Below, one piece after another: positions 31,036-52,672 of a stretch of 64,000 nucleotides of DNA (its first letter is position 1; every line of letters starts with the position of its first letter). This stretch comes from Candidatus Harrisonbacteria bacterium. Its GTDB lineage: Bacteria; Patescibacteriota; Minisyncoccia; UBA6257; UBA11618. Where the stretch lies: positions 80,052 through 144,051 of the forward strand of contig VGJO01000001.1 of assembly GCA_016867415.1 (NCBI GenBank). Direction: 5' to 3'. A program made the position numbers and the translations under genes. Below the pieces are notes generated by a model that did no database searches, was not told where the DNA came from, and saw only the letters and a list, made by a program, of their open reading frames with translations.

Positions 31036-31145
31036 AAAGAAGTTCTATTTATTGTATCGTCCCTTATCTATTTTCTCAAAGACACGAGGTAGTAATTATG
31101 TAAATATTTGCAAACTTATTGCTATCTATTATACTTCTCACCGCT

Positions 31146-31964
31146 ATGATTACCCCTCACATTTCTGGAAAAGATGCCGCCTTCCGCCTTCTCCGAGCCT
31201 CTCTTCATGTTCGCCGCTCCGAGCTCCGCATTCGTCTTGAGTATTGGGTTTTTGAACTCCTCGAATCCTGTGCTGTGGGCGATAGAGACCGTATTGCTCG
31301 CTCCCTTTCTGTTGCCTCTGAGCTTATTGCCTTTGCCGAACAAATAAATGAGCTTGATCCTATTTCTTACCAGGAGTTAATTTCCTCACTGGAAGGAATA
31401 GAAGAAAAGTGGAAGGATATGAAAGAATTAAAAAAAGAGGATATTTCAGAAAATTTCCCTATTAGGCAAAATACGGCAAAAGAAGAAAATATAAATACGG
31501 CAATAAGGCAAAAAAAGGAAATTTTAGAAAATAATACGGCAATATACGGCAATAATTCTTATAAAAAAGAAAAAGAAGTATCTTCAAATTCAACGGAAAA
31601 GGAAGTTGAAAAAGAATCCCGTGGTTTTAGTCATCTCTTAAGTGGAGAAACCTTCTCTTCTGAAGACCCTCGTTCTTCTTATCTCGATGAAGCCCCTATT
31701 ATATCTTCTTCAGAAACCATAAAAAACTCTGAAAGAGAAGAAGATCTTGATAATAACAGTCCTCGGACAATCATGCGCCAAAGCGCCATTCTTCGCAGAG
31801 TTCGGGAAAGTGGTGGATTAGGCTGCCGCTTAAAGGAGTTAATTGAGGAATTTCCCCAGGTTTCCGAGCGTACTCTTCGCTACGATCTCGAACGCCTGAT
31901 TAATCAAGGTCATATTATTCGCGTAGGTCAAGGCCCAGTCTCCACCTATCTTAGTAAGTCTTAA
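31146..31964 (+). CDS. hypothetical protein with C-terminal winged-helix/HTH-like domain; internal 10-nt DNA tandem repeats
   Basis: C-terminus LRRVRESGGLGCRLKELIEEFPQVSERTLRYDLERLINQGHIIRV resembles a DeoR/HTH_11-type wHTH. DNA aatacggcaa repeated 4 times. Start uncertain (TTG 31119 or ATG 31146). Confidence 0.4.
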   Translation: MITPHISGKDAAFRLLRASLHVRRSELRIRLEYWVFELLESCAVGDRDRIARSLSVASELIAFAEQINELDPISYQELISSLEGIEEKWKDMKELKKEDISENFPIRQNTAKEENINTAIRQKKEILENNTAIYGNNSYKKEKEVSSNSTEKEVEKESRGFSHLLSGETFSSEDPRSSYLDEAPIISSSETIKNSEREEDLDNNSPRTIMRQSAILRRVRESGGLGCRLKELIEEFPQVSERTLRYDLERLINQGHIIRVGQGPVSTYLSKS

Positions 31965-32247
31965 ATTAGCAAAAAAGCTAAAAATAAAGCCTATTTTTAA
32001 AAGAATAAGTATGTATAGTATGTATTATAATTATGCAACTTAAATTTTAATATTCCTACCGTAACTCTTTTAACTCTCTCTCGTTGTAATAATTGCAGAA
32101 ACGACAGACTATATCCGCGTGGCCGTTCTTATTAATTGACTTTCGGCAGCTAAGTACGCTAGTATATAGCTGCTAATAATACATAAAGAACTGATCCCGT
32201 GTGAGGCTGGATTGGCTCAAAAAGGCTCATTATCTGGGCCATTTTGC

Positions 32248-32270
32248 CACCGACCTTACCGTCGGTTTTT
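32248..32270 (+). terminator. intrinsic terminator with no annotated upstream ORF
   Basis: Stem accgac/gtcggt, 6-nt loop, T6. No ORF between 31964 and this hairpin. Confidence 0.55.
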
Positions 32271-32426
32271 TGTTATTAGTGGTTACCCCTCTCTTTTGCC
32301 AAGACAGAAAAGCAGTAAAAGCTCAATGTCAAAAAACAAATTGGTCGATAAGAATTAGGTAGCTTGATATGTCAATACAAATTACATTACTAACTAGAAT
32401 TCTTTAAGAAACGTTAATCATAAAAA

Positions 32427-35400
32427 ATGAACAGTCATTTCAGAAAAATCACGTCCGTGGCGGTTTCCGCTACGACCGTGGCCTGGTTGTCTGGTGCTTC
32501 GATGCTTATGCCCGCGGCTTTTGCCCAGAGCGTGACCGATGTTGCTAGTCTTCAGGCGCTTATTGCTCAGCTTACTGCGCAGCTTGCGGCTTTGCAGGGC
32601 AGTGGTTCTGCTTCGACCGGTGTTTCCGTTGCGGGTATTCCCGCCGGATTTCAGTTTACCAGCAACCTCACTGTTGGTAGCCGAGGCACCGATGTGAAGT
32701 ATCTTCAGATGCTTTTGAACGCGGATTCCGCTACTCAAGTTGCCGCTTCCGGCGCTGGCTCTCGTGGTTTAGAGACCGATTCCTTCGGTCCTCGCACCAA
32801 GGCGGCTGTAGCAAAGTTCCAAAATAAATATGCGAGCGAAGTTTTGACTCCTGCTGGTCTTACTACTGGTACTGGTTACTGGGGTGCGGCCACTCGTGCC
32901 AAGGCTAACTCGATCGTAATGGCAGGCGGCAGTACTACTCCTACTCCGACTCCTACGCCGGGCATTACTGGCGCGGTAGTTGTTTCCCTTGCTAGCGACA
33001 CTCCGGTGGCGTCAAACGTCCCGAAGGGCGCTTCGCAAATTCCATTTACCAAGCTTGTCTTCACTGGCAACGGCAGAATCGATTCTTTGACCTTTAAGCG
33101 GGTCGGCGTCGGTCAGACCGGCGACTTTGTCTCAAGTGGTATCAACCTCTATGAGGGTGCCACTCGTTTGACCACTGGCAAGACTATCAATTCCACCAGC
33201 CACGAGGTGAACTTCCCGAACTTGAATCTTCAAGTAAGCGGTACTCGCACTCTCTTGCTCGCTGCGGACATTAGTTCCAGCGCGACCTCTGGTGATTTGA
33301 ACGGTTTCACTCTTATCAGTGCGATCATCGATGGTAAGACTCAGGCTACCGATATTCGTGGCGCTCAGATTGCTATCTCGGGAGCTTCCGTCGGTGCTGC
33401 GACCAGCACCAAGCAGGGCTCTCTCTCCAATCCGAACGTTGGTCAGGTTGCTGCCAAGGTTTCCGAGTTCAAGATTACCGCTGGGACTGCGGAAGATATC
33501 ATGGTAAAGAAAATCGTCTTGACCAATGGTGGCTCGATGAGCTCTGCTAATCTCACTAATGTGACCATTAAGCAAAGTGGTACCACTCTTGGTACTGCTG
33601 CTGCGGTCTCTGGTCGAGATCTCTTTGTGGTTGACTTCACCACTCCTCTTCAGATCTTAAAGGGTCAGTCGAAGAATTTCGAAGTCTTTGGTAACATCAG
33701 TCCTTTGGCGAAGAGAGCGGAAACTATCAAGCTCTATCTTGATACGACCTCTGATATCTTTGCAACTGGTGCTACCTACGGTTATGGCGTCTCGATGGAC
33801 ATCAGCGAATTTGATTCCGATTCGTCTAATCACCACGTCTTAACTCTCTCTGGCGCTGAAGTAACCATCACCTTCAATGGTCCGGTTGCTCGCAATATTC
33901 CGGTCCGTGGTCAGGATGTCACTTTGTTTGACTTCTCGATCGCTTCCGCGAATAACATCGAAATCCGCAACTCGTCCTTCACTGTGGCGATTGCCAACTG
34001 GGCGTCTGGTGACGAAGTCACCGATTTCAAGGTTATTGATGCGTCTACTGGCGCGGCGGTAACGAGTGCTACCACTATTGGTGACTCGGCTGCTACCGAA
34101 TCAGTATCCTTCACTGACACTATTAATATTGCTGCCGGCCAGACCCGCAAGTTCTTGGTAACTGGTGACATCAGCTCCACTATGGATGCTAGCGACACTA
34201 TTACTGTGACCTTGGGTGCCTTTGGTTCCAGCTCTATTAAGAACTTGGATAACAACCAGTTTGTCAGCACTTCGGATATCGTTCCTGCTACTGCGATCGC
34301 GGGTAACACTCAGACCGTAAAGGCAGTAACGCTCGATGTGACTCTCTCTGGTACTCCCGCTTCCCACAATGTGGTAAAGGGTTCCTCCAACGAACAGCTT
34401 GTTGGCTTCAATTTGAAGGCGACCAGCGGTAAGGTTCGTGTGAGCTCCTTGACGGTTTCCGCTTCGGCGGCTCCCGGTAGCGAAACCCAGGTTCGCAATG
34501 ACCTTCGCAGTGCTTCTCTCTTGATTGACGGCGTAATGGTCGGATCTAAGAAGAGTTTCACTGATGAGGGAGATGTTTCCTCTGCTGCCTTTGACAATTT
34601 GAATTACGAGATTGAAGAAGGTAAGACCGTGAAAGCGGTTGTGCAGGTGGATCAGATCTCGACCGATGCGACTTCGGGCAATGTGTATCGTGCGTACATC
34701 AATGATCTCTCCGCTGATATCTCGGCGACTGATGTTGATGGCAATGCGCTTTCCTTGTCTGGTAGTGTCAACGGTGGCGACACGACTGCTGGTACTGTGA
34801 CTGTGACTGTCGCTACTCCGACCGTGCAGATTTCTAAGATCGATGATCAGGAGACCGAAGAGGGCCTTGTCGTCGGTGGTCAGGAACAGCGCTTGGCGAA
34901 GTTTGAAGTCTTTGCTCAGTACTCTGATGTCCGAATTAATAAGTGGCGTGTTGGTGTAAACACCTCGGCTGCCGCGGGCACCACCACTGCTCTTAATGAG
35001 GAGGTCAAAGAAATTCGTCTCTATGACGGCGCCACTCTTATTGCCTCTGGAGTTCCTTCTGGTAGCGGTGCGGATGCGGGTGCGGTCAAGTTTGAGAACA
35101 CTGCTGGTCTCTTCTCGGTTGCTGCAAACAGCACCAAGAAGATTGAGGTTCGCGCCATGTTGGGTGAAGTGACTGGTGTGACTGGTGGCGCTGACACTGG
35201 TTCGAGTATTGTCGCCTATTCTTCAAGTTCTGACTTTGAAGCGGTCGCTGGCAACACTCAACTCACGACCTTCTCTTCGACCACTCCTCCTATCGGCAAT
35301 ATCAAGAGACTCTATCGCAGCATTCCGACTGTGGATGTCTCAAGTCCCTCAAGCGCTGTCCTTACGGCTGGCGAAGTTGAGGCCTTGAAGTTCACGATCT

Positions 35401-35864
35401 CTGCTGATCCGAAGGGTGATGTTGATGTAGCAAGAGTCGAGTTCGAAGTGTCCGTGAGCAACGCTACTATTACTGCTGACAGTATTGTGGTTCGATATGC
35501 TGGGAGCAATATCACGCTTTCAACGTCCACTATCATTGCGGCAAATCCTTCTACCACTACCGCTTCGGGTACCATTTCGTTCACTACTCCGGAGAGAATC
35601 AGCGCCGGCCAGTCTAAGACCTACTCTGTGTTCTTGACTGTTGGGGCGGTTGGTTCCGGATCTGCGTCGCTTGTCACCAAGCTTCTCAGAGACGAAACAG
35701 CTTTTGCCACTCCGGCCTCCCGCGCGAGCTTGGACGTTACTGCGAATTCCTTCGTATGGAGCGATCGCGGTATCTCGCCTCACAGCGTGAGCACTGCCGA
35801 CTTTCACAATGGCTTCAGAGTGAAGACTCTTCCCTCTGGCGCCAAGGCTTTATCTAAGAGCTAA
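32427..35864 (+). CDS. large secreted cell-surface protein: signal peptide, coiled-coil, PG_binding_1-like domain, then tandem Thr/Ser/Gly/Val-rich beta-sandwich-like repeats
   Basis: Signal peptide ...MLMPAAFA-Q. Segment GSRGTDVKYLQMLL...DSFGPRTKAAVAKFQNKY...GYWGAATRAKA resembles a peptidoglycan-binding domain. About 900 aa of repeated approximately 100-aa modules. Markedly GC-rich. Confidence 0.8.
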   Translation: MNSHFRKITSVAVSATTVAWLSGASMLMPAAFAQSVTDVASLQALIAQLTAQLAALQGSGSASTGVSVAGIPAGFQFTSNLTVGSRGTDVKYLQMLLNADSATQVAASGAGSRGLETDSFGPRTKAAVAKFQNKYASEVLTPAGLTTGTGYWGAATRAKANSIVMAGGSTTPTPTPTPGITGAVVVSLASDTPVASNVPKGASQIPFTKLVFTGNGRIDSLTFKRVGVGQTGDFVSSGINLYEGATRLTTGKTINSTSHEVNFPNLNLQVSGTRTLLLAADISSSATSGDLNGFTLISAIIDGKTQATDIRGAQIAISGASVGAATSTKQGSLSNPNVGQVAAKVSEFKITAGTAEDIMVKKIVLTNGGSMSSANLTNVTIKQSGTTLGTAAAVSGRDLFVVDFTTPLQILKGQSKNFEVFGNISPLAKRAETIKLYLDTTSDIFATGATYGYGVSMDISEFDSDSSNHHVLTLSGAEVTITFNGPVARNIPVRGQDVTLFDFSIASANNIEIRNSSFTVAIANWASGDEVTDFKVIDASTGAAVTSATTIGDSAATESVSFTDTINIAAGQTRKFLVTGDISSTMDASDTITVTLGAFGSSSIKNLDNNQFVSTSDIVPATAIAGNTQTVKAVTLDVTLSGTPASHNVVKGSSNEQLVGFNLKATSGKVRVSSLTVSASAAPGSETQVRNDLRSASLLIDGVMVGSKKSFTDEGDVSSAAFDNLNYEIEEGKTVKAVVQVDQISTDATSGNVYRAYINDLSADISATDVDGNALSLSGSVNGGDTTAGTVTVTVATPTVQISKIDDQETEEGLVVGGQEQRLAKFEVFAQYSDVRINKWRVGVNTSAAAGTTTALNEEVKEIRLYDGATLIASGVPSGSGADAGAVKFENTAGLFSVAANSTKKIEVRAMLGEVTGVTGGADTGSSIVAYSSSSDFEAVAGNTQLTTFSSTTPPIGNIKRLYRSIPTVDVSSPSSAVLTAGEVEALKFTISADPKGDVDVARVEFEVSVSNATITADSIVVRYAGSNITLSTSTIIAANPSTTTASGTISFTTPERISAGQSKTYSVFLTVGAVGSGSASLVTKLLRDETAFATPASRASLDVTANSFVWSDRGISPHSVSTADFHNGFRVKTLPSGAKALSKS

Positions 35865-35904: not shown

Positions 35905-35934
35905 AAAAATCCCCCTCCCGGGGGATTTTTGTTT
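35905..35934 (+). terminator. intrinsic terminator
   Basis: aaaaatccccc tccc gggggattttt: 7-bp stem with A/T flanks. Confidence 0.75.
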
Positions 35935-36021: not shown

Positions 36022-36197
36022 CACGCGAAGTAATTTTGGATGGAGTTTGTGATTTCTTTCCGAGGAGCCGCCGCAACGTATAAATAAAAGGTATGTCGAA
36101 GGTACTTAGTACTCTAATACCGGAGATCTCGAGTACTCTCGAGGTGAAGAAGCTAGCACAGAAAAAACTGCGAAAATTCGCCAAAAAACAAGCTTAT
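36022..36197 (+). repeat. long variant (with internal insertion) of dispersed structured repeat, ending 3 nt before GT4 start
   Basis: ccacgcgaagtaattttggatggagtttgtgatttc... + insertion ggtacttagtactctaatacc / ctcgagtactctcgag + ...gaaaaaactgcgaaaattcgccaaaaaacaagctt. Confidence 0.6.
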
Positions 36198-36200
36198 ACC

Positions 36201-37385
36201 ATGAATAAAAAGATGAGTAAAAAAGTTTTATTAATAATTACGCAACCCACCTGGGGCGGCGCCCAACGCCATGTCTTTGATCTCGCTCTTGGCCTAAAAG
36301 AGGAAGGTTTCAAGGTGGTGGTAGGGACAGGGAAACCCAAGTCTTCTGCTAAAGAAGACTCTCTTCTCATCGAAAAGTTAAGAGAAAAAGAAATCACCAC
36401 TCAAATCTTTTCTCATCTCACCCGTCCTATTAGACCCCTTTCAGACATTCGCGCTATTTTCGAAATCTTTTCTTTCCTCCAAAAAAATAAAATAAATATT
36501 CTCCATCTCCATAGTTCGAAGGCCGGGGTGGTGGGAGCGGTGGCCGGCTTTCTTGCTCGCACCCCTCGCCGTCTTTTTACCGCTCACGGCTTAGTGCTGA
36601 ATGAGCCTCTTCCCCGGTATCTTCATGGTCTCTATTACATCCTTGAATGGATTAGCTTCCGCCTCTCGCATCACATCATTACCGTCTCTGATTTCGACCG
36701 TCATATTGCGCTAAAAAGTCGTCTCACTTCTCCTCTTAAAATCTCCACAATCTGGAACGGCATTGATCAAAAAGTATTTACCTCTTCACTCTTACCTAAA
36801 GAGACTGCTCGAAGAAAAATTCTCTCTCTCTTTCCCCACTCCATAGATGAAAAAAACTTCATTATCGGAACCATCGCTCATTTCTACAAGAATAAGGGCC
36901 TCTCTTTTTTAGTTTCCGCGGCCGAGATCGTGGTAAAAAGTTTCCCGCAAGCCCACTTTGTCATTATAGGGAGTGAAGGTTCGGAGCGCGCTTCTATTGA
37001 GCAAAAAATAAAAGAGTGCTCACTTGAAAAAAACATTCACTTGCTAGGTTTCATAGAAAATCCCGAATCATTATTAAATAGTTTTGACCTCTATGTTTCC
37101 TCATCTCTCAAAGAAGGCCTTCCATACTCCTTAATCTCAGCTCTTTCTGCGGAAGTACCAATAGTGGCTACTCAGGTTGGTGGCTGTTCTGAAATTATTA
37201 TTAATGAAGAAAATGGACTCCTTGTCCCTCCTGCCGACGCACCTGTTCTTGCTTCTGCTATTAGCCGCTTCCTAATCTCTCCTCACCTAAAAGAAAAAAC
37301 AAGAGAAAATAATAAAGTCCGCTCCTCGCTCTTCTCCCTTTTTGAAATGATTGATAAAACTATCGCAATCTACGATAATCGCTAG
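36201..37385 (+). CDS. glycosyltransferase family 4 (GT-B)
   Basis: EGLPYSLISALSAEVPIVATQVGGCSEII..ENGLLV (E-x7-E motif region). The ORF-track N-extension from 36093 is translated repeat sequence. Confidence 0.8.
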   Translation: MNKKMSKKVLLIITQPTWGGAQRHVFDLALGLKEEGFKVVVGTGKPKSSAKEDSLLIEKLREKEITTQIFSHLTRPIRPLSDIRAIFEIFSFLQKNKINILHLHSSKAGVVGAVAGFLARTPRRLFTAHGLVLNEPLPRYLHGLYYILEWISFRLSHHIITVSDFDRHIALKSRLTSPLKISTIWNGIDQKVFTSSLLPKETARRKILSLFPHSIDEKNFIIGTIAHFYKNKGLSFLVSAAEIVVKSFPQAHFVIIGSEGSERASIEQKIKECSLEKNIHLLGFIENPESLLNSFDLYVSSSLKEGLPYSLISALSAEVPIVATQVGGCSEIIINEENGLLVPPADAPVLASAISRFLISPHLKEKTRENNKVRSSLFSLFEMIDKTIAIYDNR

Positions 37386-39608: not shown

Positions 39609-40754
39609 ATGGAATCTTCAGTTAAAAAAATACTAATTGCCTCAGGTATTTTTTCGCCTGAAATTGGAGGTCCCGCTACCTTCTCAAAAATCATTCTCAA
39701 TGAATATCAAAAAAGTGAGAAAATAGATCCAATTGTTCTCTCCTACTTCCTTCCTCATCATGCATCCCAAGATTCGCGTGTTTTTAGTGTTTCCAAATCT
39801 TTGCCAAAAGGCCTTCGCCATCTCATCTATTTTTACAAATGCTTATTTCTCTCTCGAAGGCGAAAACTAGTCCTTGCCCTCGATCCAGTCTCTGCCGGCT
39901 TACCCGCCCTTCTCTCCTCTTTCTTTATGGGAAATAAGTTTCTCGTTCGCATCGCCGGTGACTATGCCTGGGAAGAAGGCTCTCGTCGCTTTGGCGTGAC
40001 AGATACGCTCGATGATTTTCAAAAAAAATCCTATGGCCTTCGAGTCGAGTGGCTCCGCTCCGTCCAGAAATATGTGGCCAAGAAAGCTGAGAAAATAATC
40101 GTTCCCAGTGAGTATCTAAAAAAAATACTAGTGACCGGATGGGGGATAGGGCCGGAAAAAATCATCATAATCTACAACGCTGTTGATTTTCCTGATGCGC
40201 CCGTAGAAAAATCCCTTTCCGTTTCTCCTGCCTTCTCTCTTTTTTCTGCCGGTCGCCTTGTCTCCTGGAAGGGTTTCGACAGCTTATTAGATCTTATGCA
40301 TGAACTCCCCTCGACTATCACACTCGCGATCGCCGGCGATGGGCCGGAAGAACAATCTTTAAGAAAAAAAATAATTGATCTAGATCTTACCTCTCGGATC
40401 ACTCTCCTCGGCCGCCTAGAGAAAAAAGACTTAGTAAATAGATTAAAAGCCGCTGATCTCTTTATTTTGAATACTAAGTATGAAGGCTTTTCTCACCAAA
40501 TTCTCGAGAGTCTTGCCCTCGGCGTCCCGGTAATTACTACAAATATCGGTGGCAATCCCGAGCTTGTAAAAGAGGGTGAAAATGGTTTTCTCGTCGCGCC
40601 CGATGATATGCTTGGCTTTAAAAAAGCTATAGAAAAAATAAGCACTGATAAGTCTCTCTACGCTCACCTTAGCAAGAATGCTTTGCAAGTCCGCCACCTT
40701 TTCTCAAAAAATCGCCTCATTACTGATTTTGAAAATTTGATAAAAAACATATGA
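39609..40754 (+). CDS. glycosyltransferase family 4
   Basis: EGFSHQILESLALGVPVITTNIGGNPELVKEGENGFLV. Confidence 0.8.
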   Translation: MESSVKKILIASGIFSPEIGGPATFSKIILNEYQKSEKIDPIVLSYFLPHHASQDSRVFSVSKSLPKGLRHLIYFYKCLFLSRRRKLVLALDPVSAGLPALLSSFFMGNKFLVRIAGDYAWEEGSRRFGVTDTLDDFQKKSYGLRVEWLRSVQKYVAKKAEKIIVPSEYLKKILVTGWGIGPEKIIIIYNAVDFPDAPVEKSLSVSPAFSLFSAGRLVSWKGFDSLLDLMHELPSTITLAIAGDGPEEQSLRKKIIDLDLTSRITLLGRLEKKDLVNRLKAADLFILNTKYEGFSHQILESLALGVPVITTNIGGNPELVKEGENGFLVAPDDMLGFKKAIEKISTDKSLYAHLSKNALQVRHLFSKNRLITDFENLIKNI

Positions 40755-41890
40755 AAGTTCTAATGATATCAATTGACAAGGGGATTTTAGATCGAAATAC
40801 TCCAGCGGGAAAAAGAATGAAAGAATATTCCGAGCTTTTCGACGAGCTTGTGATTATTGTTTTTGCAAAAAAAGGAAAAGGGAGTGGTTACGAAAATGGC
40901 AGGCTAAAAGTTTTTTCTTCTGATTCTCTTTCTAAAGTTTTTTATTTCTGGGACGCTTGGAAAATAATCCGTCGCCTGCGAATAAATAAAGATTGGGTTA
41001 TCACCTCCCAAGACCCCTACGAGACCGGTCTCTTCGCGCTCCTTGTGAAGTGGTGGTATAAGGTTCCGCTTGAGATGCAGATCCACGTCGATATCTTCTC
41101 TCCGTATTTCAAACATTTGAGTTTTCGCAACCGATTTCGCGCCTGGCTTGCAAAGCAGACCCTTCCGTTTGCTACTCGCGTCCGCGCCGTCGCCTCTCGG
41201 GTCAAGCAATCAATTATCGATCAAAAGCTTCTCCTGCCAGAAAAAATCACCGTCATTCCCGTCCCGACTAATAACGAAGAGATACGAAAAAAATCCTCCG
41301 CCTTTTCCCTCAAAGAAAAATACCCAGGGTTCGCGCATTACTTTCTCATCGTCTCCCGCCTCGCTCCCGAAAAAAACATCCCGCTTGCGATTGAGGCCTT
41401 TGCCGAAGTCATCCAAAAATATCCCGAAGCCTTTCTTCTCATTGTTGGCAAAGGAAGTGAGGAGAATTCTTTAAAAAAGTTAGTTTTTCGCTTGAAATTG
41501 GAAAAAAACATTTGCTTTGAGTCCTGGACCTCTGATCCTTTTTCCTACATGAAGACCGCCGACATTTTCCTTCTCCCTTCCCTCTACGAAGGCTGGGGCC
41601 TCTCTGCCATTGAGTCTCTCGCCTGCGGCCTCCCTATCATTATGACCGACGTCGGCTGTGCTGGTGAGGTAGTGCGAGATGGCAAAAATGGCCTCATTGT
41701 TCCGGTGGCGGACAAAATAGCTCTCCAAAAAGCTATGGAAAAAGTAATAAAAGATTCCTCCCTCCTTTCCTCCCTCAAAGCCGGCACTCATGCCACTGAT
41801 TTTTCTCGTATAGAGAAGCCAGAGATTCTAAAAGCCCTGAAAGAAAATCTGGAGAAAACCGCCGCCTCTTTCCTCTTCCATAAATCATAA
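40751..41890 (+). CDS. glycosyltransferase family 4
   Basis: EGWGLSAIESLACGLPIIMTDVGCAGEVVRDGKNGLIV. 4-nt overlap with the upstream gene (operon). Confidence 0.8.
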   Translation: MKVLMISIDKGILDRNTPAGKRMKEYSELFDELVIIVFAKKGKGSGYENGRLKVFSSDSLSKVFYFWDAWKIIRRLRINKDWVITSQDPYETGLFALLVKWWYKVPLEMQIHVDIFSPYFKHLSFRNRFRAWLAKQTLPFATRVRAVASRVKQSIIDQKLLLPEKITVIPVPTNNEEIRKKSSAFSLKEKYPGFAHYFLIVSRLAPEKNIPLAIEAFAEVIQKYPEAFLLIVGKGSEENSLKKLVFRLKLEKNICFESWTSDPFSYMKTADIFLLPSLYEGWGLSAIESLACGLPIIMTDVGCAGEVVRDGKNGLIVPVADKIALQKAMEKVIKDSSLLSSLKAGTHATDFSRIEKPEILKALKENLEKTAASFLFHKS

Positions 41891-41912
41891 AAAAATTGTA
41901 TAATATGGAGAA

Positions 41913-44021
41913 ATGCGCGTTCTCGTCTTTTCTACCGATGATTTTCTTCCTCCCGCTGGTGGCGCCGAGCTTGCTTTAGGTGAGATTATCCGCCATCTTC
42001 CCGAAGTTCAGTTTGAAGTCATCTCTGCCAAAATCCACCGAGGTCCTCGCCCCACAAATATCCCAAAAAACGTCACTATCCGTCACATTGGCTGGGGATT
42101 TTGGCCTCTCCTCGACAAACTTCTACTCGTTCTTTTAGGGCCCTCTATAGCCTATAAAAGCCATAAGAAAGCCCCTTTTGATCTAGTCTGGTCCATGATG
42201 GCCTCCTATAGTGCTTTTGCTGCCCGAATCTTCAAAAAGAAGGCTAAAACCCCCTATCTTCTCACCCTGCAGGAGGGAGATCCGATTACTCGGCCCCTAT
42301 ACCGCATTTTGAAGCGCTTAGGGCTCTTTGGACCGCTTTTTTCCGATGCCAACGCCCTCCAACCTATCTCTCATTTTCTCTCTCGCTGGGGTCATTTTAT
42401 GGGCTTTAAAGGGCCTGTAGAGGCTATCATTCCCAATGGCGTTGATACTGATCATTTTTCGAGAGAAATCTCCGCCGCCGAGCGGGAGAAGCACCGCTCC
42501 TCTTTTGGTTTTCCTCCTGATGCCCTCATTCTCATTTCCGTCTCCCGCTTTGTCGCCAAAAATGGCCTTGCGGACATCATTCGCGCTCTCCCTCTTCTTC
42601 CCGAAAAAGTTTGTCTTGTTCTCTGCGGTTTTGGTGATCTAGATCAATCACTCCGCGATCTTGTCGCGCGTCTAGATCTTGAGCATCGTGTTCACTTTTT
42701 TGGTTCTTGTTCTCACACTCATCTTCCCGCCGTCCTTTCCGCCACCGATATCTTCATTCGCCCGTCTTTGAGTGAAGGGCTAGGTAATTCTTTTCTCGAA
42801 GCCATGGCCTGCAGCCTGCCAGTAATTGGCACTAAAGTAGGTGGCATCCCGGATTTTCTTGAGGATGGAAAGACTGGTTTTTTTTGTCTTCCCGAAAATC
42901 CCGAAAGCATAAAAGACACAGTACTAAAAATAATAAACTCCAATCCTGCTCGTCTTACCGAAATAAAAAAATCCGCCAAAGATTTGGTTATCAAAAAATA
43001 CAATTGGCGCTTGATAAGCAGTGGGATGAAGAATCTTTTCGAAAAGACGCAAGCGATTACCCCTCTCTGTCTAGAAAAACCTCTCTTCATCCTCTCGCTC
43101 GACGTCGAGCTTGCCTGGGGTATGAAGGGTTCAAAAAGATTTTTCCACCAATACGAAAAAAAGCGGGAAGTAGTCGATAAGCTTCTACAGCTTTTTGAAA
43201 AGTACGACATCCCCGCCACCTGGGCGGTGGTTGGGCATCTCTTTCTTGATAGCTGCGCCCCCGTCTCGGGCGTGAAGCATCCAGAAATTATTCGACCAAA
43301 AAAAGAGGGTACGAATGACTGGTTTGAAATTGATCCCTGTACCTCTATTACCACTCACCCTTTTTGGTATGGCAAAGATATTGTGGGAAAAATCATTAAG
43401 TCAGAAAAGCAAGAGCTCGCCTGCCATACCTTCTCGCATGTATACATGGATTTCCCCTCTCTTACCAAAGACTGGTTTGAAAGTGAATTAGCGGAATGTC
43501 AGCGGCTTGCCAAAGATCATGGCCGATCTCTAACTTCTTTTATCTTTCCGCAAAACAAAATCCGTTTTGTAGATAGTCTCGCCCCCCATGGCTTCACCGC
43601 TTACCGCGCTCCTGATGACAATTGGTATAGTTCTTTAAGAGGACTCCTGAAGCGTATCGCTCATGTGATTGATGATTATTTGTGCTTGCCTGTTCGTTCC
43701 GTCCTCCCTTATAAAGACAATGATCTCATCGCCATCCCCGGCAGTTATTTCTACGTCCATAAAGTCGGCTGGGCGCGTTTTCTCCCCGTCTCCTTTCGAG
43801 TAAAAAAAGCCAAGTGGGGGATAGATGATGCAATAGAGACCGGTAAAATATTTCACCTCTGGACTCACCCTTTTAATCTCACGGATAAAGATGGTAAGCT
43901 CCTTGCCGGTCTCGAAGAAATCCTGCGCTACGTCGCCGAAAAAAGACGACAAGGAAAAATCTCTATTACCTCTATGAACAAAGTTAATAATTTTTTAAAA
44001 AATAATGAAAACTCTAAGTAG
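41913..44021 (+). CDS. bifunctional GT4 glycosyltransferase (N-terminal) / polysaccharide deacetylase, NodB-like (C-terminal) fusion
   Basis: N-terminal half: EGLGNSFLEAMACSLPVIGTKVGGIPDFLEDGKTGF. C-terminal half: LDVELAWG, ATWAVVGHLF, CHTFSH His motif of NodB-type deacetylases. Confidence 0.7.
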   Translation: MRVLVFSTDDFLPPAGGAELALGEIIRHLPEVQFEVISAKIHRGPRPTNIPKNVTIRHIGWGFWPLLDKLLLVLLGPSIAYKSHKKAPFDLVWSMMASYSAFAARIFKKKAKTPYLLTLQEGDPITRPLYRILKRLGLFGPLFSDANALQPISHFLSRWGHFMGFKGPVEAIIPNGVDTDHFSREISAAEREKHRSSFGFPPDALILISVSRFVAKNGLADIIRALPLLPEKVCLVLCGFGDLDQSLRDLVARLDLEHRVHFFGSCSHTHLPAVLSATDIFIRPSLSEGLGNSFLEAMACSLPVIGTKVGGIPDFLEDGKTGFFCLPENPESIKDTVLKIINSNPARLTEIKKSAKDLVIKKYNWRLISSGMKNLFEKTQAITPLCLEKPLFILSLDVELAWGMKGSKRFFHQYEKKREVVDKLLQLFEKYDIPATWAVVGHLFLDSCAPVSGVKHPEIIRPKKEGTNDWFEIDPCTSITTHPFWYGKDIVGKIIKSEKQELACHTFSHVYMDFPSLTKDWFESELAECQRLAKDHGRSLTSFIFPQNKIRFVDSLAPHGFTAYRAPDDNWYSSLRGLLKRIAHVIDDYLCLPVRSVLPYKDNDLIAIPGSYFYVHKVGWARFLPVSFRVKKAKWGIDDAIETGKIFHLWTHPFNLTDKDGKLLAGLEEILRYVAEKRRQGKISITSMNKVNNFLKNNENSK

Positions 44022-44025
44022 TGCA

Positions 44026-44148
44026 AAGCGAAGTAATTTTGGATGGAGTTTGCGATTTCTTTTCGAGGACAAGCCCGGAGCATACTGGGCTCAAGTATGT
44101 GAGGACTTACCGGAGAAAAAAATCGCAAAATTCGCCAAAAGTACGAGC
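44026..44148 (+). repeat. canonical copy of dispersed structured intergenic repeat, ending 11 nt before ATP-grasp gene ATG
   Basis: gcgaagtaattttggatggagtttgcgatttcttttcgaggacaagcccggagcatact gggctca agtatgtgaggacttaccggagaaaaaaatcgcaaaattcgccaaaagtacgagc. Confidence 0.65.
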
Positions 44149-44159
44149 ATAAATAATAT

Positions 44160-45320
44160 ATGACTTGTCTAATTCTCGACGCTCATCTTCATAGCGCTCT
44201 TTCTACCGTTCGATCTTTGGGTAAAAAAAATAGTAAGATTTTTTCTGCTTCTGACACCCGGCTCGCCCCCAGCTTTTTTTCCCGCTACTCAGTAAAAAAT
44301 TTTCTCTACCCTTCTCCTCTCAAAGATGAATCTGCTTTTATAAAAAAAATAACTTCCATTCTAGAAAGTCTTAAGGACGATTGTCTTATATATATTTTCA
44401 GCGAGACTACTCTTTTGCCTCTTTCCCGAAACAGGAATAAACTGCCAAAAAATACCCGTCTTATTCTCGGCTCTCTCGAAAATGTCGAGCTCGCCTCCGA
44501 CAAAGCCGCTACTCTCACTCTTGCGGCAGAAAATAATATCCCCATTCCCCAAACTTTCTTTCCCGGTTCTTTCGCTGAAGCTCAAAACTTTCTCTCCAAA
44601 ATTCCCTACCCCTGCATTGTGAAGCCTCGCCATAACTGCGTCTGGAAAGATGGTGCCTCTGTCTATGAGACCGCCCATCTTGTCGAGACGAAAGAAGAGG
44701 CGGAAAAAATCTGGCGGGAACTTTTTAATGCTTCCGGTGAACCGCCCCTTATTCAAGAAAGAGTAGTTGGTGAAGAGCGAGGAATCTTCACCTTCGCAGT
44801 AAAAGGGGAGGGCTTTGCTTGGTTTGCGCATAAGCGGCTTGAGTCTTTAAAGAAGTTAGGTGGCGCAAGTATCCTCCGAGAAAGCATAGAAGTAGATCCT
44901 AAGCTTAAAAGTTATTCTGAATTACTTATAAAAAAACTTGATTGGACCGGCCCTCTTATGATTGAGTGGAAGTGGGATGAAAATGCTAAGAGGTATCTCC
45001 TCATGGAGATCAATGCCCGTTTCTGGGGTTCTCTGCCGCTTGCTGTTGCCTCAGGGGTAGACTATCCCGCACTCATGCTTGATTTCGCAGTCGGACAATC
45101 GCTTCCTAATGAAGTTACTTATAAGATTAGTATCCGTTCCCGCCATTTCTTTGGCGCTCTAAGAAGTCTCCTTCGAGCAAAGACGTGGAGAGATTTTCAG
45201 AAGCTCTGGCAAATAATGTGGGGGGAAAAAACGATTGATGATGTTTTCTCTTTCTCCGATCCCCTCCCTTTTCTTGGAGAAGTTCTATTTATTGGTAAAA
45301 CATTTATATGGAAAAAATAA
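44160..45320 (+). CDS. ATP-grasp superfamily ligase
   Basis: CIVKPRHNCVWKDGASVY, GEERGIFTFAVKG, LMIEWKWDE..YLLMEINARFWGS. Characteristic ATP-grasp B/C subdomain motifs. Confidence 0.65.
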   Translation: MTCLILDAHLHSALSTVRSLGKKNSKIFSASDTRLAPSFFSRYSVKNFLYPSPLKDESAFIKKITSILESLKDDCLIYIFSETTLLPLSRNRNKLPKNTRLILGSLENVELASDKAATLTLAAENNIPIPQTFFPGSFAEAQNFLSKIPYPCIVKPRHNCVWKDGASVYETAHLVETKEEAEKIWRELFNASGEPPLIQERVVGEERGIFTFAVKGEGFAWFAHKRLESLKKLGGASILRESIEVDPKLKSYSELLIKKLDWTGPLMIEWKWDENAKRYLLMEINARFWGSLPLAVASGVDYPALMLDFAVGQSLPNEVTYKISIRSRHFFGALRSLLRAKTWRDFQKLWQIMWGEKTIDDVFSFSDPLPFLGEVLFIGKTFIWKK

Positions 45321-46096
45321 TTGGCGTCGCTCACATCCACTCCCGCTTTTCCTATGATGGCAAGCTCTCTTTGCCTGAGCTAAAATCACTTTTTCAAAAA
45401 AACAATCTTCGCTTTGCTTTAGTCTCCGAGCACGAAGATGATTTTGATGAGAAAAAATGGATTGCTTTAGTAGAGGAGTGCCAAAAGCTAAGCGATGATA
45501 GTTTTCTTTTCATCCCTGGTCTGGAGATAAACTACGCTGGCGGTCACGTCCTCTGCTTTGGCCTCAATCAGCCAATCTCTTATATGAAAGGGATAGAGAC
45601 TTTAAAAGAAGCAAATAAAGCCGGCGCACTCATTGTGTTTGCGCACCCTCATCGCAGTAGATATAGAGTAGGGGAGGAGCTTCAGCAAATAATAAACGGC
45701 GTTGAAATCTGGAATTCGCACTATGATGGCAAATGGTCGCCTCGATTTCTTTCATATAAACTCTGGCAAAAAGTAAACAGAGAGGATAAAAAAATCTTCG
45801 CCTTTGCCGGCCTCGATTTTCATGATCTTCATCATCTCCACGGGCCACGACTAGAAGTAGCATCTTCTTTTTCGATAGAGGCAATTCTTAAAGCGCTTAT
45901 ATCGGGAAGCTTTGTGATTAAAAAAGATGAAAAAATAATCTCCGCTTTTCCCGATCTTAATATGTTTCCTCTTTTTATAAAAAGTTTCCTCTCTCTTTGC
46001 ATTCTCGGTGGTTATAAATTCGCTGGCAATATATTCTCCTTTTTCCCAAAAAGTTGGAAGAGAAAGATAAAACTATCCTTAAGAAAAAATCTTTAA
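45308..46096 (+). CDS. PHP-family metal-dependent phosphoesterase (CpsB-like)
   Basis: GVAHIHSRFSYDG N-terminal His motif, VSEHED, FAHPHR. Size about 260 aa, as for PHP tyrosine phosphatases. Overlaps the upstream gene by 13 nt. Confidence 0.55.
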   Translation: MEKIIGVAHIHSRFSYDGKLSLPELKSLFQKNNLRFALVSEHEDDFDEKKWIALVEECQKLSDDSFLFIPGLEINYAGGHVLCFGLNQPISYMKGIETLKEANKAGALIVFAHPHRSRYRVGEELQQIINGVEIWNSHYDGKWSPRFLSYKLWQKVNREDKKIFAFAGLDFHDLHHLHGPRLEVASSFSIEAILKALISGSFVIKKDEKIISAFPDLNMFPLFIKSFLSLCILGGYKFAGNIFSFFPKSWKRKIKLSLRKNL

Positions 46097-46100
46097 AAGA

Positions 46101-46958
46101 ATGAATGCAAAACAAAAAAGCGTCCCCTACTTTATAGGCATCGGCGGTCAGCGCTGTGGCACTTCCTGGACCTATGCCTGCCTCTTCGAGCATCCTGAGA
46201 TCTGCGCTCCCGAAAAAGAAATTCACTTCTTCAGCCGTGATCAAAAATTTTCTCAAGGCTACGATTGGTATGAGTCTTTTTTTAAAAACTGTGGTGCTAA
46301 AAAAGCCGGAGAGTTTTCCACTTCCTATATTTCTGATCCTCGTGTCGCCGAGCGTATCGCCGCTCGTTACCCAGAGATAAAAATTATTGCCATCCTAAGA
46401 AACCCCGTCGATCGAGCAGTTTCTAACTATTTCAATGACCTCGCCTCCGGCAAAGTCGAGAAAAGCATCTCCTTCGATGAAGCGCTTCAAAATCACCCAG
46501 AGTACATTGATCAAGGGCTGTACGGAAAGCACCTAGAGCCTTTCTTCAAAGCTTTTTCAAAAAAACAGATCCTTATTCTCCGTTATGAAGATTCGCTAAC
46601 AAACCCCGAGGAGTTTATTCGATCCATCTATCAATTTTTAGAGGTCGATTCTTCATTCAAACCTTCCTATTTGAAAAAGAAGGTAAATGTGAGCCGCGTC
46701 CCGACTTTTGTGGGTCTTGATAACGCTTTCCTAAAAATATCTTCTTTCTTAAGAAAGAGTGGTCTCACCTCCCTCTGGTGGCTTATCAAAAAATCCGGCC
46801 TTCCCAGACTCATCCTTTGGGCAAACACTAGCGAGCAAAGAGGGGAAACGGAATCTCTTCGCCTAAAAAAAGAAACCAAAGAATATCTTCAGTCTATCTT
46901 CGCCTCCGACAAGCAAAAACTCACTTCCCTAACCGGCATAAATTTCCCCAACTGGTAA
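46101..46958 (+). CDS. sulfotransferase-family protein
   Basis: FIGIGGQRCGTSW (5'-PSB-like P-loop of PAPS-dependent sulfotransferases). RNPVDRAVS 3'-PB-like region. Confidence 0.6.
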   Translation: MNAKQKSVPYFIGIGGQRCGTSWTYACLFEHPEICAPEKEIHFFSRDQKFSQGYDWYESFFKNCGAKKAGEFSTSYISDPRVAERIAARYPEIKIIAILRNPVDRAVSNYFNDLASGKVEKSISFDEALQNHPEYIDQGLYGKHLEPFFKAFSKKQILILRYEDSLTNPEEFIRSIYQFLEVDSSFKPSYLKKKVNVSRVPTFVGLDNAFLKISSFLRKSGLTSLWWLIKKSGLPRLILWANTSEQRGETESLRLKKETKEYLQSIFASDKQKLTSLTGINFPNW

Positions 46959-46965
46959 AACGCAT

Positions 46966-46991
46966 TGTCATTCCAGACTCGATCTGGAATC
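46966..46991 (+). repeat. short hairpin repeat (family H2): tgtCATTCCag actcgat ctGGAATC
   Basis: Stem attccaga/tctggaat. Same loop consensus as the other two copies. Confidence 0.5.
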
Positions 46992-47019
46992 TATAAAAAT
47001 ATTTACCTTATTTCTAAAA

Positions 47020-47715
47020 ATGACTCTCACTAATAAAAAAAGGATTCTCTGCTTCCATGACGTGCTTGATTCCGATATCTTCGAGTCTCGCCTTTTGCTT
47101 TGCAAAAAATTAGGCTTCCAGTTTATATCTCTGGCCAAACTTTTAGATAACAAGACTGCCGGTCCCGCTCTCGCCGTTACCTTTGATGACGGCTATCAAT
47201 CTGTGTATCAAAATGCTCTGCCTATTTTACGCAAACTTCACATCCCCGCCACTTTTTTCATAACCAATGATTTTATTGGCCTCAAGGAAGACGCTCTAAA
47301 AAGCTTTTTGAAAAATAATCTTCTCCGCTCTTCCTACCGTGAGCCCATGTCCTGGGAAGAAGTAGGAAAAATCGCTTCTGATCCTCTTTTTGAAATCGGC
47401 GCTCACACCGCCTCCCATCCCCGTTTGAATGATAAGTATCCGAAAGAATTAGCCGAAAAAGAAATAATCGAAGCCGGTGATAATCTCGAAAAAAAGATCA
47501 GTAAAAAAATCCGCTACTTCGCCTTCCCTTTCGGCGACAGTGATAGTGCTGGTAAAGCCGCTCGATCTCTCGTCCGCACTCGCTATGAGGCCGCCTTTTC
47601 TATTATTCCAGGAAAGATTAGCGGAAATGAAACTGATACGTCATTTCTTCCCCGTCACAGCCTCGACCCTGAAAGAAATATTCTAGTTTGGCTTTTTCAT
47701 TTATTATTTTTGTAA
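47020..47715 (+). CDS. polysaccharide deacetylase (NodB homology domain)
   Basis: AVTFDDGYQSV (TFDDG motif), IGAHTASHP (HxxxH). Confidence 0.75.
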   Translation: MTLTNKKRILCFHDVLDSDIFESRLLLCKKLGFQFISLAKLLDNKTAGPALAVTFDDGYQSVYQNALPILRKLHIPATFFITNDFIGLKEDALKSFLKNNLLRSSYREPMSWEEVGKIASDPLFEIGAHTASHPRLNDKYPKELAEKEIIEAGDNLEKKISKKIRYFAFPFGDSDSAGKAARSLVRTRYEAAFSIIPGKISGNETDTSFLPRHSLDPERNILVWLFHLLFL

Positions 47716-47747
47716 AAATATCATAAGTAGGTAATCGTCCTCAGTTC

Positions 47748-47870
47748 CGCGAAGTAATTTTGGATGGAGTTTGCGATTTCTTTTCGAGGACAAGCCCGGA
47801 GCATACTAAAGGAAGTATGTGAGGACTTACCGGAGAAAAAAATCGCAAAATCCGCCAAAAGTACGAGCGC
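47748..47870 (+). repeat. canonical copy of dispersed structured intergenic repeat in a convergent intergenic region
   Basis: Near-identical to 44026-44148 except the central loop (aaagga vs gggctca) and 2 substitutions. Confidence 0.65.
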
Positions 47871-48929
47871 CTAAGAAAAATTAAACATTACTTCATAAAT
47901 CGCTTCCGCAAGATGCTCCACACTATGCTCTCTCACAACAAGCTCCCTGAAATACTTTCTCATCTCTTCTTTTTCTATTTCCTTTAAAGAAAGAAGTGTG
48001 TCTATAGCTTTTCCAACTTGATCGGCCTTCTCGTTATTTTTTATAAAAAGATACCCCTGCCATTTCTTAGGGATAAGAGGAAGGAACGAAGGGTTAGAAG
48101 TGAGTACGAGGCATCCCGCCGCCATCGCTTCTAAGACACTTTTATCAAAAGATCCTTTCGGAGTGAAATTAAAAAGAATCTCCGCTTTCTGAAAATAAAA
48201 AGGAATAGCATTATAAGGTTTTGCCCCCAGAAAAAGCACCTCTTTTTCATTATTTCCTACAGATATCTTTTCTTTAAGGGATGATAAATACTTTCTATCT
48301 GTCTCACTCTTCGCTTCCCCAATTATCTGAAGCAATTCTGTTGCGTGCGATGCGTAGTAGCCCGTGATAATATTTTCTATTTTTTTCACATGAGTGATTC
48401 TGCCTAAAAAAAGAAGCGTGTCCCGTTTCTTTTCTGAGGGAGAGGAAAAAAGTTCAGTCTGAATCCCGTGTCCTACCGGGTATATTGGGGCTGATTGAAG
48501 TTGAAAAGTTTCTCGGGTGGAAGTAAACACTCCTTGGAGAAAAAAAGTAGAAAATCGCAAAAGAAGTCCTGGTTTGTAGCATGAAGTCTTCCAAAGGAAG
48601 ACCGGCTTATGGGTAAGTCGGAAAAACCAACCACCCAAAGCCGCATAGATTTCATTCATATGGACAAAGATCGCGTCATAATTCTTTCTTTCTTGAATGA
48701 TGAGTTGAAAGAAGCGAAAAAAAGCCTGTAATTTAGAAAAAAGTCCTCGTTCTCCCGACTTTCGGAGAGAAAAAAGCCGGACATTGATAGGGAGTGTTTC
48801 AGAAGAAGGAAAAAGACTAATGACTGTTATTTGGGAAAACTGCTTGCTAAAAGCCTGGACCAGGTAATAGGTATAGCCCAAGACATCATCATCTTTGTCG
48901 ATTTTTTGCGTAAAAAAGAGTATTCTCAT
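47871..48929 (-). CDS. glycosyltransferase (GT-B fold, GT4-like)
   Basis: N-terminal MRILFFTQK Rossmann start. FDKSVLEAMAAGCLVLTSN motif. Confidence 0.6.
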   Translation of the reverse strand: MRILFFTQKIDKDDDVLGYTYYLVQAFSKQFSQITVISLFPSSETLPINVRLFSLRKSGERGLFSKLQAFFRFFQLIIQERKNYDAIFVHMNEIYAALGGWFFRLTHKPVFLWKTSCYKPGLLLRFSTFFLQGVFTSTRETFQLQSAPIYPVGHGIQTELFSSPSEKKRDTLLFLGRITHVKKIENIITGYYASHATELLQIIGEAKSETDRKYLSSLKEKISVGNNEKEVLFLGAKPYNAIPFYFQKAEILFNFTPKGSFDKSVLEAMAAGCLVLTSNPSFLPLIPKKWQGYLFIKNNEKADQVGKAIDTLLSLKEIEKEEMRKYFRELVVREHSVEHLAEAIYEVMFNFS

Positions 48930-48937
48930 AGCATTCT

Positions 48938-50770: not shown

Positions 50771-50775
50771 AAGTA

Positions 50776-50806
50776 TTGTCATTCCGGACCCCGAGCCGGA
50801 ATCCAG
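50776..50806 (+). repeat. short hairpin repeat (family H2): ttgtCATTCCgg accccga gccGGAATCCag
   Basis: Stem cattccgg/ccggaatc. Third copy. Confidence 0.5.
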
Positions 50807-50822
50807 TACATTATGTAAACTT

Positions 50823-52651: not shown

Positions 52652-52672
52652 TAAAATAAAGATTAGCTTGAT

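Follow-up and report, generated by a model that had tools for sequence, protein, structure and literature searches.

A stretch of 64,000 nucleotides from the genome of Candidatus Harrisonbacteria bacterium (positions 80,052 to 144,051 of contig VGJO01000001.1, assembly GCA_016867415.1; hereafter the window) encodes, at 32427–35864 on its plus strand, a 1145-residue protein that we read as the major wall-anchored, S-layer-type protein of the cell, with a candidate glycosylating enzyme encoded nearby. Taken as a complete scheme, this reading is in our judgement somewhat more probable than its negation, and its parts differ in strength: that the protein is secreted and anchored to the wall is close to certain, that it forms a lattice or is the main coat protein is likely, and that it is O-glycosylated by the neighbouring enzyme, which joins a Wzy_C domain to tetratricopeptide repeats (TPR), is slightly favoured. 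We infer lattice formation, high abundance, glycosylation by this Wzy_C-TPR enzyme and a role for a structured leader RNA. The S-layer-type reading is based on the exchange of N-terminal anchors within the protein family—including a triple S-layer homology (SLH) domain—on S-layer-like composition, on a monocistronic layout with a structured leader, on synteny with the Wzy_C-TPR gene, on the very large size and constant architecture of the family, and on precedents in the literature on Patescibacteria.

The Patescibacteria (Candidate Phyla Radiation, CPR) account for much of bacterial diversity; most have never been cultured, and they live attached to other cells. As the cell surface decides this attached lifestyle, the identity of the coat matters. 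We know of no coat component that has been identified experimentally in these bacteria, though S-layers have been seen by cryo-electron microscopy. Our analysis assigns a widespread gene family to the coat role and provides a domain map, a candidate glycosylating enzyme and a candidate regulatory RNA, so that coat composition, glycosylation and its enzyme, and the control of expression can now be tested.

The open reading frame (ORF), which starts with ATG, has exactly the position and length given in the original prediction, and its product is identical to an NCBI entry titled ‘peptidoglycan-binding protein [Candidatus Harrisonbacteria bacterium]’. Serine (12.5%), threonine (11.8%), alanine (11.9%), valine (9.4%) and glycine together make up 55% of the protein; the mature form has an isoelectric point (pI) of 5.06, a mass of ~114 kDa and no cysteine (0 Cys). 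These values lie within the composition typical of S-layer proteins (acidic pI, few or no cysteines, richness in hydroxylated and hydrophobic residues, 40–200 kDa), and the secretion and envelope anchorage that characterise the class are represented by a signal-peptide-like N-terminus and a peptidoglycan-binding domain recognised by fold. The strong compositional contrast with the flanks that had been claimed turned out to be modest: GC content is 0.52 versus 0.37–0.50 in neighbouring genes, and GC at third codon positions is 0.53, the highest in the window, versus 0.35–0.51. This rise stems largely from the Ala/Gly/Thr/Val/Ser-rich composition. Horizontal transfer was considered as its source and rejected, as amino-acid composition suffices and several housekeeping genes in the window reach a GC content of 0.49–0.50.

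Domain anatomy (Table 1) was established from an AlphaFold2 monomer model computed on an alignment of 46 family members, with a mean predicted local distance difference test score (pLDDT) of 85.7 and a predicted template-modelling score (pTM) of 0.50, the latter explained by a beads-on-a-string layout. The N-terminus has the form of a Sec-type signal peptide, as had been proposed, and this form is retained in the family consensus. For the short coiled-coil of the original prediction, a helix is indeed predicted and its positions are conserved (L42, A44, I46 and L49 are invariant among close relatives; mean identity 44%), but model confidence is only moderate (pLDDT 39–67) and coiled-coil character stays a possibility. 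The peptidoglycan-binding segment holds up as a domain: its helical fold superposes on solved examples, although its PF01471 score of 17.9 bits (E 0.0035) falls under the gathering threshold of 23 bits, which many relatives exceed. It is followed by a linker of low complexity (Thr, Pro, Gly and Val) that varies in length and is present in 46/46 aligned relatives.

The remainder bears out the tandem beta-sandwich modules described earlier: some 960 residues are all-beta and fall into six modules, mutually homologous in profile–profile comparisons with hhalign (probability 85–99%, E 6e-6 to 3e-19), to which the peptidoglycan-binding domain and the C-terminal tail are unrelated. Searches of Pfam, NCBIfam and PDB sequences with the surface protein returned no family beyond the peptidoglycan-binding domain and no catalytic domain; the match to a known adhesin family that the original prediction had named as refuting it did not turn up. 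In Pfam, neither SLH (PF00395) nor Cohesin (PF00963) matched the protein; resemblance to cohesins is at the level of fold only, with 9–15% identity to the cohesins of cellulosomal scaffoldins and no dockerin partners known. In the tail, W1111 is invariant and S1112, D1125 and N1128 are near-invariant among the 46 relatives. The tail is among the best-conserved parts of the whole family; it might make contacts within the lattice, bind glycan or act as a tag by which the TPR enzyme recognises the protein. A role as sortase substrate was rejected: the C-terminus (...VKTLPSGAKALSKS) has no LPXTG signal and no hydrophobic segment following it.

The candidate partner enzyme is a 726-residue membrane protein encoded downstream, in which Pfam recognises Wzy_C (PF04932) with an E-value of 7e-19 and 68.5 bits against a threshold of 31.7. 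Its listed TTG start overlaps a glycosyltransferase gene of family GT4 by 35 nt; as a protein 98% identical to it (P0233) has 713 residues, translation probably begins instead at the ATG at 37390 (M14), which removes the overlap. Its relatives are Patescibacteria proteins of 700–820 residues named ‘O-antigen ligase family’. Residues R232, R306 and H354 are invariant in 40 sequences and spaced by 74 and 48 positions, versus 73 and 50 for R215, R288 and H338, the catalytic Arg/Arg/His of Escherichia coli WaaL that PglL has in common. The AlphaFold2 model (pLDDT 90.7, pTM 0.89) has WaaL (7tpg_B) as its best PDB match in Foldseek (E 1e-5, template-modelling (TM) score 0.67 on the target), with the TPR superhelix that binds substrate in OGT ranking next; the sequence match to WaaL (7TPG) is weak (E 0.007). 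Both the hydropathy profile of 31 orthologues and the AlphaFold2 model place four transmembrane helices after the catalytic loop, which puts the ~260-residue TPR domain on the extracytoplasmic side. A cytoplasmic TPR tail was considered, since single-sequence hydropathy is ambiguous between three and four helices, and rejected on the agreement of these two results.

Synteny was followed in 39 species-representative Patescibacteria loci; the downstream count was made on the 32 whose downstream DNA extends for 1.5 kb or more. A same-strand Wzy-like gene starts within 1 kb downstream in 29 of these 32, at gaps of 32–590 nt, and at 1.8 kb in a 30th, so that the orthologous synteny for which the original prediction had called was found. 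A second Wzy-like gene occurs in 15 loci, and an AsnB-like gene follows in many. More distant members, one of SLH type included, have sugar-nucleotide and glycosyltransferase genes behind them or a Wzy_C gene in the vicinity. In the window itself, two Wzy_C/PglL-like proteins with TPR tails had been said to bracket the surface-protein gene. The downstream one has both Wzy_C and TPR; the upstream one is a 623-residue paralogue (27% identity to the 726-residue protein over 361 residues, E 4e-30, with the DRAHN motif retained) that has no Pfam match. Neither is an immediate neighbour, a gene with a DeoR-type helix-turn-helix (HTH) intervening upstream and the GT4 gene downstream. The ~27 kb of sugar-modifying genes said to follow are present (36.1–63.4 kb), with GT4 and GT2 transferases, deacetylases, a sulfotransferase, AsnB-like proteins, Wzx and an epimerase.

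Such neighbourhood could also be co-location and nothing else, with both genes part of one cell-envelope module: the enzyme would polymerise the glycan, or join it as a ligase to a lipid, a pilin or a polymer of the wall, and the surface protein would be unglycosylated or bind the polymer. We regard this as one of two main competitors and as a minority possibility. Wzy_C spans polymerases, ligases and O-oligosaccharyltransferases, and the closest structure to our enzyme is a ligase; the PglL_A motif is absent from it; the frequent second Wzy-like paralogue would suit a polymerase–ligase pair; and synteny with ClpB, conserved upstream, means that some conserved neighbours are probably incidental. 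Set against this, the tight same-strand adjacency holds across protein identities of 30–57%, in contrast to the variable remainder of the glycan locus, and a TPR domain that faces outward hints at a partner that is a protein. An O-oligosaccharyltransferase gene adjoining its target gene is, moreover, a documented pattern: 21 of 31 pglL genes are co-oriented with an adjoining target gene, the arrangement that recurs in our loci, and PglL modifies flexible low-complexity regions. Monoderm-type Patescibacteria are not known to have a lipid A-core acceptor, nor is a lipopolysaccharide core expected in this lineage, which also speaks against mere co-location. We retain glycosylation of the surface protein as the favoured function. 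The Wzy_C-TPR enzymes may constitute a new clade of O-oligosaccharyltransferases; if so, it is of interest for glycoengineering.

The surface protein belongs to a very large family. A word-indexed search gave 330 matches, full-length at 26–57% identity, and a locus scan run with a 17-sequence alignment of close members found full-length relatives in 39 species-representative genomes labelled Harrison-, Lipton-, Jorgensen-, Wolfe- and Falkowbacteria and Parcubacteria. A search seeded with a Nealsonbacteria member extends the family to Beckwith-, Specht-, Magasanik- and Pacebacteria and Kazan, and a profile search of 1.84 billion cluster representatives returned 6,263 matches at E<=1e-30 and 23,606 at E<=1e-10. 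Many of these align to the profile only from about position 160 onwards: the six-module body is constant and the N-terminal module varies. On the same body we found the coil with peptidoglycan-binding domain, a triple SLH domain and at least three further repeat modules without a Pfam match. The clearest SLH case (P0068) has three SLH repeats before the six-module body (E 3e-29), and P0077, P0107 and other distant members likewise carry three SLH repeats; an SLH-like anchor type occurs as well. The Pfam-less modules, of 150–270 residues (in P0057, P0403, P0422, P0425, P0374, P0437, P0415 and P0456), replace the peptidoglycan-binding domain, carry signatures such as ‘GDLIK..VYY.G.DGKRYVFP..TY.TWY.DFS’ and ‘EGDLIRGPDGIKVYI..KRHIFNP’, and are candidate new cell-wall-binding domains of Patescibacteria. 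Conservation declines along the protein, from 49% in the anchor through 40–42% in modules D1–D3 to 30–34% in D4–D6, where most indels lie; as far as sequence goes, this gradient is in keeping with a protein that is fixed to the wall by its N-terminus and has its other end exposed.

Constancy and gradient bear on a second alternative, in which the protein forms no lattice but is a fibrillar adhesin anchored to the wall, or serves attachment to the host, its modules acting as stalk or binding surface on an episymbiont. Kuroda et al. (mBio 2024) take highly expressed proteins of Paceibacteria with a peptidoglycan-binding domain as host-attachment factors, and the most variable modules here are the distal ones. 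Fibrillar adhesins usually vary in repeat number, however, whereas this family keeps six modules and ~1100–1400 residues over thousands of lineages; there is a single copy in the 64-kb window; both ends of the protein are conserved; and its composition is S-layer-like, with SLH anchors in some members. We consider a lattice-free adhesin rather unlikely, and coat and attachment roles are in any case not mutually exclusive. That the protein is instead a peptidoglycan-active enzyme or an alpha-2-macroglobulin-like protease trap is highly improbable and in effect refuted by domain anatomy: database names (‘peptidoglycan hydrolase-like’, ‘peptidoglycan-binding protein’) and an anchor typical of wall hydrolases suggest the former, and strings of beta-sandwiches bring alpha-2-macroglobulin and complement proteins into the Foldseek results, but a catalytic domain is missing from the searches described above, only six copies of one beta module and a short tail follow residue 182, whole-protein Foldseek matches in the PDB are generic multi-immunoglobulin (Ig)/MG-domain proteins at TM ~0.1, alpha-2-macroglobulins included, and with no cysteine the protein can form no thioester.

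Expression signals provide further evidence for the S-layer-type reading. Published S-layer genes are monocistronic, and slpA mRNAs carry stabilising 5′ stem-loops. The surface-protein gene is likewise predicted to be its own transcription unit, between a promoter-like site and a strong terminator. The promoter-like site stands at the start of a 462-nt upstream intergenic region, and relatives have a −35/−10-like box at the equivalent position, 10–20 nt before the first of two leader hairpins. The structured leader lies at 32136–32280 of the window and is shared by L001–L003, L007–L019, L021–L036, L038–L041 and L044. In an alignment of 34 loci, 78.6% of cells in the hairpin-1 stem are paired versus 19–53% in slid controls, with 43 double-sided changes versus 16.4±5.7 in shuffles (0/500). 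A covariance model of hairpin 1 matches the window at E 2e-4 and, over 804 kb scanned, gives a single match in each locus, always within this leader and on the same strand as the gene; with the same model the motif was absent from distant SLH-type and other loci. The leader had no Rfam match at either gathering or permissive thresholds.

The second hairpin, terminator-like and followed by a U-run, is present in 32 of the 34 leaders. Its 5′ arm, [C/U]CUC[A/G]CU, is complementary to the loop of hairpin 1, and strict complementarity is found in 31/34 leaders versus 4.4±1.8 in shuffles. Minimum free energy (MFE) folding of 32172–32280 pairs both hairpin regions in one long helix (−41.5 kcal/mol, z −5.7), as it does in the leader of L036 (z −4.9). 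Duplexes of cognate partners average −19.4 kcal/mol, a mean reached by 0/5000 permutations, versus −16.9 for non-cognate ones and −10.3 for shuffled sequences; the direct 23-nt duplex of the window itself is weak, at −11.2 kcal/mol. The idea that the leader is no more than two independent hairpins was revised, the MFE folds and the cognate-versus-non-cognate energies indicating alternative pairing. Judged by sequence and predicted folding, the leader looks like a terminator/antiterminator element, or at least a conserved 5′ stabiliser as in slpA mRNAs. More speculatively, it might be a previously undescribed riboregulator, a terminator/antiterminator switch that couples synthesis of the surface protein to an envelope or glycan-supply signal and forms, with the dedicated TPR-bearing Wzy_C transferase, a self-contained ‘S-layer glycoprotein module’ found throughout the Patescibacteria; we put this forward tentatively, as a doubtful extension of the scheme. 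Before the ATG (32400–32426, ttaatcataaaaaATG) we found no Shine–Dalgarno-like sequence; the sole nearby GAGG is that of the leader hairpin loop, >200 nt upstream of the ATG.

On the proposed mechanism, the protein would be exported via Sec and would dock non-covalently on peptidoglycan through its N-terminal domain, possibly with oligomerisation by the conserved amphipathic helix that precedes this domain. The flexible Thr/Pro stalk would carry the six cohesin-like modules outward to form a surface coat, with the distal, variable modules facing the environment. The downstream locus would build an undecaprenyl-linked oligosaccharide, which a Wzx flippase would carry across the membrane; outside the membrane, the Wzy_C-TPR enzyme, with its WaaL/PglL-type catalytic loop, would move the glycan en bloc to serine or threonine residues of the protein. 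The likeliest acceptor would be the Thr/Pro stalk, and the extracytoplasmic TPR domain would recruit the protein substrate. The gene would be transcribed alone from a strong promoter, with the structured leader probably stabilising or attenuating the transcript.

Several points weigh against this scheme. Among the top structural matches of the surface protein there is no solved S-layer protein, and its modules look like cohesins and like the Ig-like domains found in pilins and adhesins of Gram-positive bacteria, a likeness that an adhesin fits equally well; lattice, abundance and glycosylation are all inferred. The label ‘sheath’, which the original prediction had offered beside S-layer, gained no specific support. 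The search seeded with a Nealsonbacteria member did not surface the accessions named in a 2024 preprint on S-layer candidates of Patescibacteria (discussed below). On the side of the enzyme, the PglL_A motif (PF15864) was not detected by Pfam at E<=0.01—PilO, a proven O-oligosaccharyltransferase, is likewise without it—and within Wzy_C sequence alone cannot tell an O-oligosaccharyltransferase from a ligase or polymerase. In the window the Wzy_C-TPR gene is separated by the GT4 gene from that of the surface protein, and two relatives (L010 and L039) have no Wzy_C neighbour. Lastly, no initiating phosphoglycosyltransferase of Bac_transf or WecA type was recognised in the glycan locus of the window; the initiating enzyme may be among its unannotated ORFs or encoded elsewhere.

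Table 1. Features of the surface-protein gene and its surroundings (window coordinates; aa, residues of the surface protein).
Feature	Position	Strand	Basis or remark
Second, divergent Wzy-like paralogue, 623 aa	29164..31035	-	BLASTP to the 726-aa protein
DeoR-type HTH protein, candidate regulator, directly upstream	31119..31964	+	HTH_DeoR E 1e-5
Promoter-like site TTGACT-18-TAGTAT	32136..32165	+	Start of the upstream intergenic region
Leader hairpin 1	32183..32224	+	7-bp covarying stem, invariant loop (A/G/U)GUGAGG; GTGAGG at 32201-32206
Leader hairpin 2, terminator-like stem-loop and U-run (ACCGACcttaccGTCGGTTTTTT)	32249..32272	+	Loop/arm complementary to hairpin-1 loop
Signal peptide, aa 1-34	32427..32528	+	MNSHFRK, hydrophobic core, AFA/QS; predicted cleavage after AFA; pLDDT <50
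Amphipathic helix, possibly coiled coil, aa 35-65	32529..32621	+	Helix 36-58 predicted
Peptidoglycan-binding domain (PG_binding_1 fold), aa 66-167	32622..32927	+	Wall anchor
Disordered Thr/Pro linker GGSTTPTPTPTPGI, aa 168-181	32928..32969	+	TTPTPTPTPG; pLDDT <50; candidate stalk/O-glycosylation site
Six cohesin-like beta-sandwich modules	32970..35702	+	Modelled at pLDDT ~90; D1 aa 182-322, D2 323-476, D3 477-632, D4 633-797, D5 798-964, D6 965-1092
Conserved C-terminal tail, aa 1093-1145, and stop	35703..35864	+	FVWSD..PHS..TADW.NG..VK.LPS
Bidirectional intrinsic-terminator-like hairpin (TCCCCCTCCCGGGGG and T-run)	35910..35924	.	46 nt past stop
GT4 glycosyltransferase	36093..37385	+	Pfam; between surface-protein and Wzy_C-TPR genes
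Wzy_C-TPR membrane enzyme, 726 aa	37351..39531	+	Pfam Wzy_C; candidate O-oligosaccharyltransferase
Glycan biosynthesis locus	39609..63438	.	Composition given below

The glycan locus proper (~24 kb) encodes GT4 and GT2 transferases, a GT4–deacetylase fusion, an ATP-grasp protein, a sulfotransferase, a deacetylase, two AsnB-like amidotransferases, methyltransferases, a Wzx-like flippase (53466–54722), a SIS-CBS isomerase and an epimerase/dehydratase. Five of its ORFs have no Pfam match: 45308–46096, 51830–52651, 54715–55590 (minus strand), 56557–57981 and 59840–60469. GC content falls to 0.30–0.36 at 52000–60000 and 63000–64000, versus 0.40–0.48 for the rest, a dip that suggests a variable or recently exchanged sugar-modification cassette. 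An initiating phosphoglycosyltransferase is encoded in a relative (L002). In L010, one of the two loci without a Wzy_C neighbour, the downstream gene (13692–14222) encodes a small protein with a PG_binding_1-like C-terminus.

Upstream, the protein with the DeoR-type HTH carries this domain at its C-terminus, after an uncharacterised N-terminal part of ~200 residues, and in 18 of 33 loci a homologue is encoded immediately ahead of the surface protein. Distant members (L005 7798–9765; L006 2623–4300) have in that place an extracytoplasmic function (ECF) sigma factor and a protein that is DUF5667-like or unknown; a DUF5667-like gene also adjoins the highly expressed PMX_810_sub_00350 of Kuroda et al. 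The DeoR-HTH, ECF sigma and DUF5667-like neighbours are possible dedicated regulators. Further upstream (window 24617–28073), ClpB and then a polytopic membrane protein of ~243–250 residues, for which Pfam gave no match, are conserved; ClpB was found in 21 of 29 loci with enough upstream DNA. As to taxonomic labels, a few family members and one enzyme homologue (L034; P0141, P0167, P0329) are binned as Prolixibacteraceae, Aminicenantales, Dehalococcoidales or Nanoarchaeota, and many third-party annotation (TPA) metagenome-assembled genomes are labelled ‘Saccharibacteria’; these are most likely errors of binning or labelling, not occurrence outside Paceibacteria-type lineages.

Within the phylum, an apparent S-layer has been seen by cryo-electron microscopy on Ca. 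Nealsonbacteria, a member of the Parcubacteria. According to Kuroda et al. (mBio 2024), the top five signal-peptide genes by expression in three Paceibacteria include ones for secreted proteins with a peptidoglycan-binding domain; one such protein, in Ca. Yanofskyibacterium, has an expression value of 16.7 versus ~12 for ribosomal proteins. The preprint (bioRxiv 10.1101/2024.05.28.596244) predicts Patescibacteria S-layer proteins of 1131–1274 residues, those of Kuroda et al. included, and gives lattice predictions for its candidates; two of its entries are the peptidoglycan-binding-domain proteins of Kuroda et al., the 692-residue entry being matched by gene length. These proteins share with ours the phylum and size class and the features by which they were selected: signal peptide, anchor and multiple Ig-like domains. 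Compared by size and features only, our family is probably that of the preprint’s S-layer candidates, and given that preprint the S-layer assignment itself is probably not new. In the passages available, however, neither source mentions a Wzy_C-TPR pairing, glycosylation or a leader RNA, and Kuroda et al. interpret the proteins as attachment enzymes. We found no paper in the searchable literature that ties S-layer candidates of Patescibacteria to a Wzy_C-TPR partner or to glycosylation, and the enzyme pairing and the structured leader appear to be undescribed there.

As an enzyme, the Wzy_C-TPR protein is like PglL and PilO in its Wzy_C domain, conserved Arg/Arg/His, large extracytoplasmic loop and a gene co-oriented beside that of its presumed target, in which a flexible low-complexity Ser/Thr/Pro region is the likely site; it differs in having no detected PglL_A motif, a predicted target of ~114 kDa instead of a pilin, and a C-terminal TPR domain of ~260 residues. 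From WaaL (7TPG) it is set apart by an extra, 13th transmembrane helix and the external TPR domain. WsaB and WsfB are themselves predicted Wzy_C-type O-oligosaccharyltransferases of S-layers, and both WsfB and PglL have C-terminal TPR.

The systems most like the window are those of SgsE and WsaB in Geobacillus stearothermophilus and of SpaA, WsfB and WsfA in Paenibacillus alvei. There, too, the surface protein is secreted, wall-anchored, free of cysteine, acidic and ~100 kDa in size, and is encoded in its own transcription unit beside a glycan locus with a Wzy_C and TPR transferase (WsfB) and an AsnB homologue (WsfA): sgsE and sgtA adjoin their glycosylation clusters, and the P. alvei locus contains wsfA. 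In contrast, we found no sequence or specific fold similarity between the body of the window protein and these proteins, the window protein is anchored by PG_binding_1 instead of SLH, its locus looks Wzx-type whereas those clusters export through an ABC transporter, and its host is a member of the Patescibacteria with a reduced genome. SLH-anchored S-layer proteins come closest through the distant family members that carry a triple SLH domain before the six-module body, where the window protein has coil and PG_binding_1. Compared with known S-layer glycoproteins encoded beside a glycosylation locus, what is new here is the peptidoglycan-binding anchor and a previously unclassified family built on six modules.

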